From the NCBI GenBank assembly GCA_050633785.1, contig JBOEHE010000055.1:24490-48489 (forward strand): a DNA stretch of 24,000 bases. Direction: 5' to 3'. The translations under genes and the position numbers were made by a program. Under the pieces are notes generated by a model. It made no database searches. It worked only from the letters and a program-made list of their open reading frames with translations, and was not told the origin of the DNA. This document shows positions 1,627 through 4,319 of this stretch, piece by piece. Source of the stretch: Arenicella sp. GTDB taxonomy: Bacteria > Pseudomonadota > Gammaproteobacteria > Arenicellales > Arenicellaceae. The first letter of the stretch is position 1; each line of letters begins with the position of its first letter.

Positions 1627-3435
1627 CTACGATGCTCTCGAAGCTCTTTTGCGTTCGTGTTCCTTTAAGAAACGTTTACGTACTCGGATGCTTTCCGGAG
1701 TGATTTCAACCAACTCGTCATCATCAATAAATTCCAGAGCACCTTCCAAACTATGCTTGATAGCAGGAACTAACTGAATAGCATCGTCTTTACCAGAAGC
1801 TCGGACATTGGTTAATTGCTTGCCTTTAAGCGGGTTAACCGTTAAATCGTTATCACGTGAGTGGATACCAACTACTTGCCCCTCATAAACCATTTCCGTA
1901 GGTTTAATCATTATGCGGCCTCGTTCCTGCAAATTAAACAGAGCAAAAGCCAGGGCTTTACCACTGCCATTAGAAATCAAAACCCCATTTTTGCGTTGTC
2001 CATAAGATTTTTCTTTCTTCGGACCGTATTTATCAAATACGTGATAAATCAGACCTGAACCAGAAGTCAGAGTCATGAACTCGGTTTGAAAACCAATCAA
2101 ACCACGCGATGGGATAACGAAATCCAAGCGAACGCGCCCTTTACCATCCGGATTCATGGACTGCAAATCGCCACCACGTTCTTGCAGAGCCTGCATAACC
2201 GAACCTTGGTTCTCGTCAACTATATCCACTGTAAGTTGCTCATAGGGCTCGTGAATCGCCCCATCAACGTCCTTAAAGATAACTTCAGGCCGAGACACCG
2301 CCAATTCAAAACCTTCACGGCGCATGTTTTCGATCAATACCGACAAGTGCAATTCACCACGTCCAGATACTTTAAACTTCTCCGGATCCGGTGTATCTTC
2401 AACGCGCAAAGCAACATTGTGCAATAATTCTTTTTGTAAACGATCACGAATCTGTCGCGAAGTCAGGTATTTACCTTCCTGGCCAGCCATAGGCGACGTG
2501 TTAACCTGAAAAGTCATGGTAACCGTAGGTTCATCTACAGATAACGGCGGCAAAGCCTCTACAGCATCACGGTCGCATAAGGTATCCGATATATTGAGAA
2601 CTTCGAGGCCGGTAATCGCTACAATGTCTCCTGCAGTCGCCTGTTCAACTTCAACTCGCTCTAGACCTTTAAAACCAAACACCTGCATGACCCTACCATT
2701 ACGGGTACTTCCATCAGAAGCAACAACAGTAACAGGCGTATTCTTCCCAGCACTGCCCTGCTTGATTCGACCAATACCGATAACACCAAGATAATTGGAG
2801 TAATCCAACTGCGATATCTGCATTTGAAATGGTTCATCAATTTCAACCGGTGGTGGTGGGACATGATCAACAATCGCTTGAAATAAAGCATCCATATTTC
2901 CAGGACGTTCGTCAGCTGACTCGCAGGCAAAGCCTTCCAAGGCGGAGGCATAAATCACCGGAAAGTCCAACTGTTCATCGGTTGCACCCAAAGTGTCAAA
3001 CAAGTCGAAAGTCTGTTCCAGAACCCAGTCTGGGCGGGCACCTTCACGGTCAATTTTATTAATCACAACAATAGGTTTTAAATTGTGTTCAAAAGCCTTT
3101 TGGGTCACAAATCGAGTTTGTGGCATAGGTCCGTCTACGGCATCGACCAATAATAATACTGAGTCGACCATAGATAAAATACGCTCTACTTCGCCACCAA
3201 AATCAGCATGCCCTGGCGTATCAACGATATTAATACGATAGTCATTCCATGTAAGCGCCGTTGGCTTTGCCAAAATAGTGATACCTCGCTCTTTCTCGAT
3301 ATCATTACTGTCCATTACTCGTTCAATTAGCTCAGCGCGTTGGTCGAATGTACCAGATTGTTGAAGCAATTTATCAACCAAAGTGGTTTTACCATGATCG
3401 ACGTGCGCAATGATGGCTATGTTACGTAATTTCAT
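1627..3435 (-). CDS. typA: Translational GTPase TypA/BipA
   Basis: 602 aa. G1 motif [29 protein letters not shown] and NKID are present. The EF-G-like domain order and the C-terminal basic tail are typical of BipA. Confidence 0.97.
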
Positions 3436-3476: not shown

Positions 3477-3505
3477 ATTATAGGGAAAAACCGGCTAATT
3501 GCCAG
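3477..3505 (-). promoter_or_regulatory. Candidate sigma70 promoter for typA
   Basis: On the minus strand, TATAAT lies at 3482-3477 and CTGGCA at 3505-3500 with a 17-nt spacer, about 40 nt upstream of the typA ATG. This is pattern matching only. Confidence 0.3.
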
Positions 3506-3630
3506 TTAAAACTCCGTTTATAAACATAAACTCAAACACAAAAGTTTATTACTTGGCTTTATTTGAGGTTTAAGGGGTTAAAATACTGCCCTATATGCAG
3601 GAAATAATACAATTAGCTATTTTGATATTG

Positions 3631-3665
3631 TTATCCACAAACTCTGTGGATAACTTTGTGTATAA
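3631..3665. promoter_or_regulatory. Cluster of three consensus DnaA boxes (DARS-like arrangement)
   Basis: TTATCCACA at 3631-3639, TGTGGATAA at 3645-3653 and TGTGTATAA at 3657-3665. All three match TTATNCACA or its complement perfectly. The first two form a 10-bp-arm perfect palindrome (3630-3654). The third overlaps a plus-strand TATAAT at 3661-3666. Confidence 0.6.
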
Positions 3666-3712
3666 TTAGCCGGACCGCAGTACAAGCGTAGGAAATCACT
3701 AACTCGAAGAGA

Positions 3713-3733
3713 ATTGATTAATTTTTAATCAAT
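3713..3733. promoter_or_regulatory. Perfect palindrome ATTGATTAA-ttt-TTAATCAAT (possible operator)
   Basis: 9-bp arms and a 3-bp spacer, read directly from the sequence. The surrounding DNA is AT-rich, so chance occurrence is possible. Confidence 0.3.
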
Positions 3734-3805
3734 TTAAAAAATACAAAAAAATCAAACACTTACAGATGTTTGCAATATTTTACTTTAGAAACATCTATCT
3801 ACTCA

Positions 3806-3832
3806 TTGACTTTTGTAACACGACTGTAATAT
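3806..3832 (+). promoter_or_regulatory. Candidate sigma70 promoter for the RDD-family gene
   Basis: TTGACT at 3806-3811 and TAATAT at 3827-3832. The 15-nt spacer is suboptimal. It lies about 50 nt upstream of the ATG at 3882. A one-mismatch DnaA-like box, TGTTGATAA (3842-3850), lies just downstream. Confidence 0.3.
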
Positions 3833-3881
3833 TGCCCTGCTTGTTGATAACCCACTTCCAAATAAACGAAATTTAAACAAA

Positions 3882-4319
3882 ATGCTAGCAAAACCTGGAT
3901 TATTTATTCGATTACTGGTGATTATTTATGACGGCTTGTTACTGGCTGGCGTCATATTTGCCTCATACGCAATTTTATTCTCATTAAGCTTATTATTGCC
4001 TGAGAACATCAATGAAATGCAGTTGATCAAAACAATTAAGTTCATTATTTTGCTGTTGGTATCTTTTGTATTTTATGGCTGGTTCTGGGTAAACGGCGGC
4101 CAGACGCTGGGAATGAGAGCCTGGCACCTGTATCTTGTCAACGAACATGGTAAGTTTATTAGCTGGCGCCAAGCTGCGATACGCTACCTGTGCGCAGCTC
4201 TATCATGGGCGACAGTGGGTTTAGGCTTCTCCTGGATTCTAATAAGCAAAGACAAGAGTGCCTGGCATGATACGATCTCTGACAGTTTTATCGTCAAACA
4301 TAAACCGGCAAAGAGCTAG
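3882..4319 (+). CDS. RDD family membrane protein
   Basis: 145 aa with 3 predicted TM helices. The G.TLGMRA..L.LV...G..IS..QA.IRY pattern is typical of the RDD domain. Confidence 0.85.
   Translation: MLAKPGLFIRLLVIIYDGLLLAGVIFASYAILFSLSLLLPENINEMQLIKTIKFIILLLVSFVFYGWFWVNGGQTLGMRAWHLYLVNEHGKFISWRQAAIRYLCAALSWATVGLGFSWILISKDKSAWHDTISDSFIVKHKPAKS

Follow-up and report, generated by a model that had tools for sequence, protein, structure and literature searches.

The geometry of the DnaA-reactivating sequences (DARS) of Escherichia coli has been described in detail (PMC6868365, PMC5742627): a head-to-head pair of DnaA boxes is followed by a third box, and it is this arrangement that causes ADP release from ADP-DnaA in E. 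coli (PMC6868365, PMC11724364, PMC5742627). The 5-bp spacer between boxes I and II is stated explicitly (PMC6868365) and the preference of DARS sites for ADP-DnaA has been attributed to the way these two boxes are arranged (PMC5742627). Beyond the core, E. coli DARS2 requires integration host factor (IHF) and Fis at defined positions and helical phase (DARS2 papers PMC4245941, PMC8682772); DARS1 needs neither (PMC11724364). DARS2 homologues have been reported in Vibrio cholerae, Shewanella denitrificans, Aeromonas and enterobacteria (Kasho 2014, Fig. S10A, PMC4245941; Miyoshi 2021, Fig. 8, PMC8682772), the published comparisons covering eight or nine near relatives of E. coli with sites at E. 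coli-like map positions (PMC4245941, PMC8682772). Here we describe a DnaA-box element at positions 3631-3850 of a 24,000-nt stretch of the Arenicella sp. genome (Gammaproteobacteria, Arenicellales; assembly GCA_050633785.1, contig JBOEHE010000055.1, hereafter C55), referred to throughout as the window. Judging from its sequence, we consider it, with a probability of roughly 0.55, to be a conserved cis-acting DnaA platform of the same kind as E. coli DARS.

The core of the element consists of three perfect matches to the DnaA-box consensus: box I (TTATCCACA, 3631-3639, plus strand), box II (TGTGGATAA in plus-strand letters, 3645-3653, minus strand), which begins 5 bp after box I, and box III (TGTGTATAA in plus-strand letters, 3657-3665, minus strand), which begins 3 bp after box II. 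Boxes II and III run opposite to box I, with box-start offsets of 14 and 12, and box I matches its counterpart in both DARS1 and DARS2 of E. coli in position and orientation. Boxes I and II are contained in a palindrome, GTTATCCACA/TGTGGATAAC, with 10-bp arms and a 5-bp spacer. Reading the sequence anew bore out the original prediction in each of these respects, boxes, strands and palindrome alike.

For the comparison with E. coli, the bioD-uvrB and rppH-mutH spacers were read directly from NC_000913. The DARS1 core is TTATCCACT-5 bp-TGTGGATAA-3 bp-TGTGTATTA (locus L006, box starts 1608, 1622 and 1634) and the DARS2 core is TTATTCACC-5 bp-TGTGGATAG-3 bp-TGTGAAGAA (locus L007, box starts 3136, 3150 and 3162). 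The offsets of 14 and 12 and the opposition of box I are identical in DARS1, DARS2 and the window, so the likeness to DARS that had first been proposed from box orientation extends to the spacing. The DARS1 core is near-identical to ours, GTTATCCACT-ATTCC-TGTGGATAAC-CAT-GTGTATTA against GTTATCCACA-AACTC-TGTGGATAAC-TTT-GTGTATAA in the window, whereas each of the E. coli DARS2 core boxes carries one mismatch and all three window boxes are perfect. E. coli K-12 also harbors a second DARS-core-like triplet in ygdT, in the right half of its DARS2 region (L007 3452-3486), TTATCCCAG-5-TGTGGATAA-3-TGGTGTAAG, with the same offsets and 316 bp after box I of DARS2.

Such a cluster is far beyond what box density would produce by chance. 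The draft assembly (5.72 Mb in 144 contigs, 43% GC, 96% complete, contamination 4.5%) contains 269 perfect boxes, and the window cluster is the only one in the genome with at least three of them inside 100 bp, against chance expectations of about 0.0015 for clusters of three or more and about 2e-7 for the exact layout. Six perfect boxes occur in the window where 1.27 are expected, a number reached in none of 100 shuffles. The element is non-coding and occupies the 446-bp spacer between typA and a gene for an RDD-family membrane protein; the spacer is AT-rich, as originally described, with 31.6% GC against 41.2% for the window.

The core is the first of four parts of a module of about 220 bp that spans 3631-3850 (distances are given from the start of box I). 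At +85 begins a Fis-consensus 15-mer, GATTAATTTTTAATC (3716-3730), which agrees with GNNYANNNNNTRNNC at every one of its 15 positions, the invariant outer G and C included, and is embedded in the palindrome AATTGATTAA-TTT-TTAATCAATT (3712-3734). Other operators that might explain a palindrome of this kind, such as those of ArgR or LuxR/HapR-type regulators, presumably fit it worse than the Fis consensus does. An IHF consensus, AATCAAACACTTA (WATCAANNNNTTR, 3750-3762, plus strand), follows at +119, 34 bp past the start of the Fis-type site, and a fourth DnaA box, TGTTGATAA (3842-3850, minus strand), lies at +211 with one mismatch, oriented like boxes II and III. From these consensus matches, Fis would bind the palindrome at +85 and IHF the site at +119. 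The original prediction had listed the IHF match and the one-mismatch box as lying near the cluster, the latter close to the RDD-gene promoter; both proved correct, and both recur as described below, the IHF site at a constant distance, both in relatives and throughout the class, and the box as a conserved fourth part of the module. The Fis-consensus site had not been connected with the cluster in that prediction.

The window copy is conserved upstream of the RDD homologue in 18 relatives' loci (three same-genus genomes and about a dozen Arenicella), where the core always lies 235-270 bp before the gene and in the same orientation. The boxes are thus carried by relatives, yet not where they had been expected: adjacency to typA is not conserved. 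In relatives, typA is found on a different contig or some 8 kb off, and the cluster stays beside the RDD gene. Box I is perfect in 17 of the 19 cores from these loci, box II is TGTGGATAAC in every Arenicellaceae relative examined and box III often has one mismatch (TGTGAACAA). When 17 RDD-type orthologues are aligned, four conserved blocks stand out and no others: the core; AATTG.TTA..TTTTAATCA; ..AATCAA....TTA; and TGTGTA.AAC. They correspond to the core, the Fis-like site, the IHF site and box IV (kept as TGTGTAYAA in the 17 sequences), and therefore the IHF site and the one-mismatch box belong to the element. In same-genus relatives a -10-like TAATAT abuts box IV.

Four further cores were reached through box pairs elsewhere in the same genome, at C116:4297-4331, C3:906-940, C49:30100-30134 and C74:12569-12603, making five with the copy on C55. 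All five carry TGTGGATAAC-TT-TGTG in the core, with box II invariant, and all five have the downstream palindrome TTGATTAA-N3-TTAATCA (GTGATTAA in C74). Its Fis-type site starts at +85 in C55 and C116 and at +74 in C3, C49 and C74, which is one helical turn closer. The copies on C55 and C116 are full modules, both with the IHF consensus at +119 and with box IV at +211 and +200, respectively. The other three are short modules that reach from box I to the palindrome over about 96 bp (C3:906-1000, C49:30040-30134 and C74:12569-12665) in which box I is imperfect (TTATCCAGT), the Fis-like palindrome lies at +74 and both the IHF site and box IV are missing. C49 and C74 are 87.5% identical over 96 bp and unrelated in their flanks; among the three short copies, similarity is limited to those ~96 bp and no flanks are shared. 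By composition, we liken the window copy, a full module, to DARS2 and the three short copies to DARS1, their size being comparable to that of the latter (101 bp, between bioD and uvrB). The window copy itself differs from DARS1 in carrying the IHF and Fis consensus sites that DARS1 does not need, and the uvrB gene of the host is on another contig with no adjoining module.

The C116 full module (C116:4100-4340) lies between priA and a gene for a 283-residue protein of unknown function, and this copy is kept with both flanks in three Arenicella genomes (loci L040-L042). Adjacency to priA is also seen in a metagenome-assembled genome (MAG) of Thiotrichaceae (L071) and in another gammaproteobacterial MAG (L109), with priA always diverging from the box I side.

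The core is by no means confined to Arenicella. A search for its 27 specified bases with at most two mismatches in 401 evenly drawn genomes of the class Gammaproteobacteria returned matches in 264 genomes, representing 200 of the 309 genera and usually with one to three matches each, while the reversed pattern returned none in the same 401 genomes. The accessory sites were then surveyed around 40 cores picked on the core alone, of which 38 had enough flanking sequence, with expectations taken from the same sequences outside the scored intervals. A Fis consensus starts at +85 to +87 in 14 of these 38 (about 0.06 expected), an IHF core motif lies at +119 to +122 in 17 (about 0.17 expected) and 28 have, at +190 to +213, a box that points the same way as boxes II and III (about 0.55 expected); a box IV-type box is present in the latter interval in 60 of 89 elements. 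Offsets between sites are fixed as well, at 34-36 bp from Fis to IHF site and 82-84 bp from IHF site to box IV, with minor classes about 10 bp away. The distances are fixed and differ by whole helical turns.

A second pattern, boxes II and III followed 25-55 bp on by TTGATTAA, occurs in at least 80 loci among named genomes. The matches listed include Nitrosomonas, Methylophilaceae, Sulfuricella, Stenoxybacter, Moraxella, Psychrobacter, Acinetobacter, Thiotrichaceae, Methylomonas, Porticoccaceae and Poriferihabitaceae. Of the 80 matches listed, 54 span 77-79 bp; although the pattern left box I unspecified, nearly all of these have a recognizable copy of it, with no more than about three mismatches, 5 bp ahead of box II. 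Flanking genes vary by taxon (priA, a SIS/DiaA-like gene, purM, a LysR regulator, transposases and others) and are often convergent; the element keeps its geometry independently of them. The window element is an ordinary member of a large, little-described family.

Two sets of matches deserve separate mention. In Methylophilaceae bacterium LSUCC0717, a streamlined betaproteobacterium (L072 3714-4860), the module adjoins a 202-residue SIS-domain gene (PF13580). The SIS fold is that of DiaA, a DnaA-binding protein that stimulates DARS1 in E. coli, and from its domain this gene could be DiaA-like or equally GmhA. Six Halanaerobiales MAG loci (L052, L062, L083, L113, L118 and L127) match the second pattern with a span of 71 bp and contain arrays of extra TGTGGATAA/TGTGAATAA boxes; these look like a separate, Firmicutes-type DnaA-box array, possibly an origin, distinct from the module.

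Among the described systems close to the full module is E. coli DARS2. Both have the three-box core in identical orientation with 5-bp and 3-bp spacers, an IHF site some 110-120 bp from box I (IHF-binding site IBS2 at +109 in E. coli, +119 in the module and +109 in its shorter class), a Fis-consensus site and an extra consensus box near +200 to +211 (TTATCCACA at +211 in E. coli), and both are non-coding and total about 220-260 bp. They differ in the orientation of the distal box, which is opposite, and in map position, since the window element is not at the rppH-mutH position. Indeed, none of the host contigs that carry uvrB (C95), rppH (C45) and bioD (C46) has a module, and mutH was not found in the genome. 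The published DARS2 homologues likewise show a DARS core with IHF and Fis sites beyond E. coli; the module described here, by contrast, is found in Arenicellaceae, at other positions and with another order of accessory sites, and its family reaches Nitrosomonas, Methylophilaceae, Moraxellaceae and others. In a literature search that did not extend to the original 2009 DARS paper, we found no description of DARS-type elements in Arenicellales, Burkholderiales-type betaproteobacteria or Moraxellaceae, nor of the core-Fis-IHF-box IV layout.

The module is most likely a stand-alone cis element to which DnaA and two DNA-bending proteins dock, as its motif content suggests. What we observe is the layout of the DNA; with the DARS geometry, two DnaA molecules would be placed head to head on boxes I and II across the 5-bp spacer and a third head to tail on box III. 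A Fis dimer on the palindrome at +85 and IHF at +119 would both bend the DNA in fixed helical phase, and box IV, at about +200 to +211, could then fold back to the core and stabilize an oligomer of ADP-DnaA. By analogy with E. coli, this oligomer would release ADP, and the free DnaA would rebind ATP and become active for initiation.

The host has much of the machinery that such a scheme would call upon. Its DnaA is 54% identical to that of E. coli and domain IV, which binds DNA, is conserved, therefore the same box should be recognized. Hda, which produces ADP-DnaA in the regulatory inactivation of DnaA (RIDA), is present above the cut-off (205.8 bits), as are a dusB-fis operon and IHF beta (125.9 bits).

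Several observations nevertheless weigh against a DARS-type function. One is the order of the accessory sites: the Fis-like site of the module lies between the core and the IHF site, at +85, whereas E. coli DARS2 runs from the core through IBS1-2 (TAAAATATTCATT at +93 and AGTCAATGCATTA at +109) to a Fis consensus at +145, so that its essential Fis-binding sites FBS2-3 are beyond the IBS. Another is that IHF alpha was not found in the 96%-complete draft; it is present, along with IHF beta, in four relatives. A further one concerns residue 208 of DnaA. In E. coli, Gln208 makes the head-to-head DnaA contact and the Q208A substitution abolishes DARS-dependent ADP release (PMC6868365). The host DnaA differs from the DARS2 system in having Ser (Ser188) in place of Gln208. 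Across 24 core-bearing genomes from 22 families, residue 208 is Ala in 12, Ser in five, Gln in four, Val in two and Arg in one, which makes the commonest residue among carriers exactly the replacement that inactivates the reaction in E. coli. Finally, two features of the layout point elsewhere: read on the opposite strand, the succession of a single box, an IHF site and a cluster 98 bp on resembles datA, which inactivates DnaA, and box IV falls at the predicted start of the RDD transcript, leaving room for a transcriptional role at the window copy.

As to residue 208, Phe239, Lys243, Asp269, Arg285 and Leu290 are invariant in the same 24 genomes, and in the six genomes that lack a close match to the core, position 208 is Ala in five and Val in one, showing no obvious association between this residue and the module. 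Either the contact is built differently outside enterobacteria, or the module may act otherwise on DnaA. Regarding IHF alpha, the assembly measures 5.7 Mb against 2.0-3.4 Mb for the three same-genus genomes and, with its contamination of 4.5%, may be incomplete in places or mixed. Taken together, the window element shares the DARS core and departs from DARS in residue 208, in the position of the Fis site and in map position, and on this comparison we do not regard it as orthologous to either DARS1 or DARS2.

The main rival is a DnaA-inactivating or titrating role, in which the module would dock DnaA with IHF but lower the initiation potential through ATP hydrolysis, as datA does, or through sequestration. 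We regard this as improbable, though a serious competitor. The E. coli datA site, in the glyVXY-queG spacer and with boxes 2, 3 and 7 as its essential ones, likewise combines a box cluster with one IHF site and a distal single box, and the resemblance is metrical: on the other strand the module reads as a single box, 79 bp, the IHF site (YAANNNNTTGATW) and 98 bp to the cluster, whereas datA reads as box 7, 65 bp, the IBS with its motif in the same relative orientation and 97 bp to boxes 2/3. That Gln208 is not conserved in module carriers while being needed for DARS action in E. coli speaks for this alternative too, and DnaA would be titrated by the high-affinity clusters, of which a genome has as many as five. 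The cluster itself nevertheless has the geometry of DARS and not that of datA. Its head-to-head pair is separated by 5 bp and followed after 3 bp by a third box, while boxes 2/3 of datA stand head to head across a 3-bp spacer with no third box in the DARS register; datA also has no Fis-type palindrome and, as a site of DnaA-ATP hydrolysis, has an effect on DnaA opposite to that of DARS. It is the exact DARS geometry that the class conserves, and it is to the arrangement of boxes I and II that the preference for ADP-DnaA has been ascribed (PMC5742627).

The original prediction had named transcriptional control by DnaA as its main alternative, and the window copy does invite this idea: DnaA, Fis and IHF would regulate the RDD promoter and the gene beside priA and so couple both to the replication cycle. 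In the 18 relatives the module always points to the RDD gene at its set distance, box IV coincides with the predicted RDD transcript start and is at or beside the predicted -10, and DnaA is known to repress promoters such as those of dnaA and nrdAB via nearby boxes (PMC8682772). The core, however, is about 170-205 bp upstream of the predicted promoter and start, and the C3 and C49 copies lie between convergent 3′ gene ends, have no downstream gene to regulate and therefore cannot be promoters. In other taxa the downstream gene is often convergent or unrelated (loci L098, L071 and L065), with the geometry unchanged whatever the neighbor. A plus-strand TATAAT does overlap box III, as first noted, but is kept neither in the paralogues nor in relatives. 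Transcriptional control thus fails to explain the family, whose flanking genes vary, and as the function of the module we find it unlikely; as a conserved module part, box IV may still affect the RDD promoter at the window copy.

With an IHF site and perfect boxes in AT-rich sequence (31.6% GC), the spacer could also suggest a replication origin or its remnant, a reading to which we give hardly any credence. An oriC is a single-copy site with an unwinding element and many DnaA boxes, mostly adjacent to dnaA or mnmG. There are two to five copies per genome and just four boxes in the module, and no 13-mer or DnaA-trio unwinding element was seen, albeit without a dedicated search. In line with the original prediction, the locus is not beside dnaA, which sits on contig C36; in G019, a complete genome, 1.30 Mb separates the orthologous copy from dnaA. 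In no taxon examined are the neighbors origin genes, and dnaA, mnmG and rpmH are never among them. The short dnaA-dnaN spacer on C36 (C36:73022-73053) has two perfect DnaA boxes of its own, TGTGGATAA and TTATCCACA, 14 bp apart, which may be an autoregulatory site or part of an origin.

Other interpretations of the spacer were tried and set aside. The palindrome of boxes I and II was flagged as terminator-like by a scan for intrinsic terminators, but no upstream plus-strand gene ends there and the run of Ts is poor. With box I imperfect in three paralogues, conservation does not fall on the hairpin as such. A promoter at box III was discarded as its TATAAT is absent from paralogues and relatives. 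A structured RNA was rejected since the Rfam match is sub-threshold, at 24.6 bits against a gathering score of 56, and is put down to chance. A mobile element or recent repeat was dismissed given that similarity between copies is confined to 36-112 bp of the module with flanks unshared. The boxes are further bracketed by a 10-bp inverted repeat, CCGGCTAATT/AATTAGCCGG (3491-3500 and 3664-3673), whose right arm is not kept in the aligned same-genus relatives. This repeat is probably due to chance, one such pair in a 446-bp spacer being not rare.

Concerning the gene setting of the window copy, the upstream neighbor is typA (1627-3435, minus strand; TIGR01394, 928 bits), encoding a translational GTPase, and the downstream neighbor is the RDD-family membrane protein gene (3882-4319, plus strand; Pfam PF06271, E 1e-17). 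A TypA protein identical to that of the window is encoded in GCA_041156805.1. A consensus scan places a putative sigma-70 promoter of the RDD gene (TTGACT, 16 nt, AATATT with TG) at 3806-3833 on the plus strand; this putative promoter is a neighbor of the module and need not be part of it.

The cluster is real and its DARS-like reading was right in kind; the function is one that we propose by analogy with E. coli. To our knowledge, control of DnaA-ATP and DnaA-ADP by chromosomal sites outside the origin is experimentally known only in that species. The exact DARS core geometry and a fixed accessory set are now seen to be kept in Arenicellales, a distant marine order, and in about two thirds of the sampled genomes of the class. 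The family supplies a defined 220-bp fragment and clear point mutations with which to ask whether DnaA reactivation is general, and the fact that Gln208 is usually Ala in carriers opens the structural model built on E. coli to a comparative test. In genome annotation, the family would assign a candidate function to AT-rich DnaA-box spacers that could otherwise be mistaken for origins or operators. More tentatively, and with doubts that outweigh our confidence, we speculate that the four-part module of about 215 bp is an ancestral, class-wide control of the DnaA nucleotide state in Gamma- and Betaproteobacteria from which DARS1, DARS2 and perhaps datA derived, with a head-to-head contact that would have to do without Gln208 because most carriers have Ala or Ser there. 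If this were true, the E. coli mechanism would be a special case.

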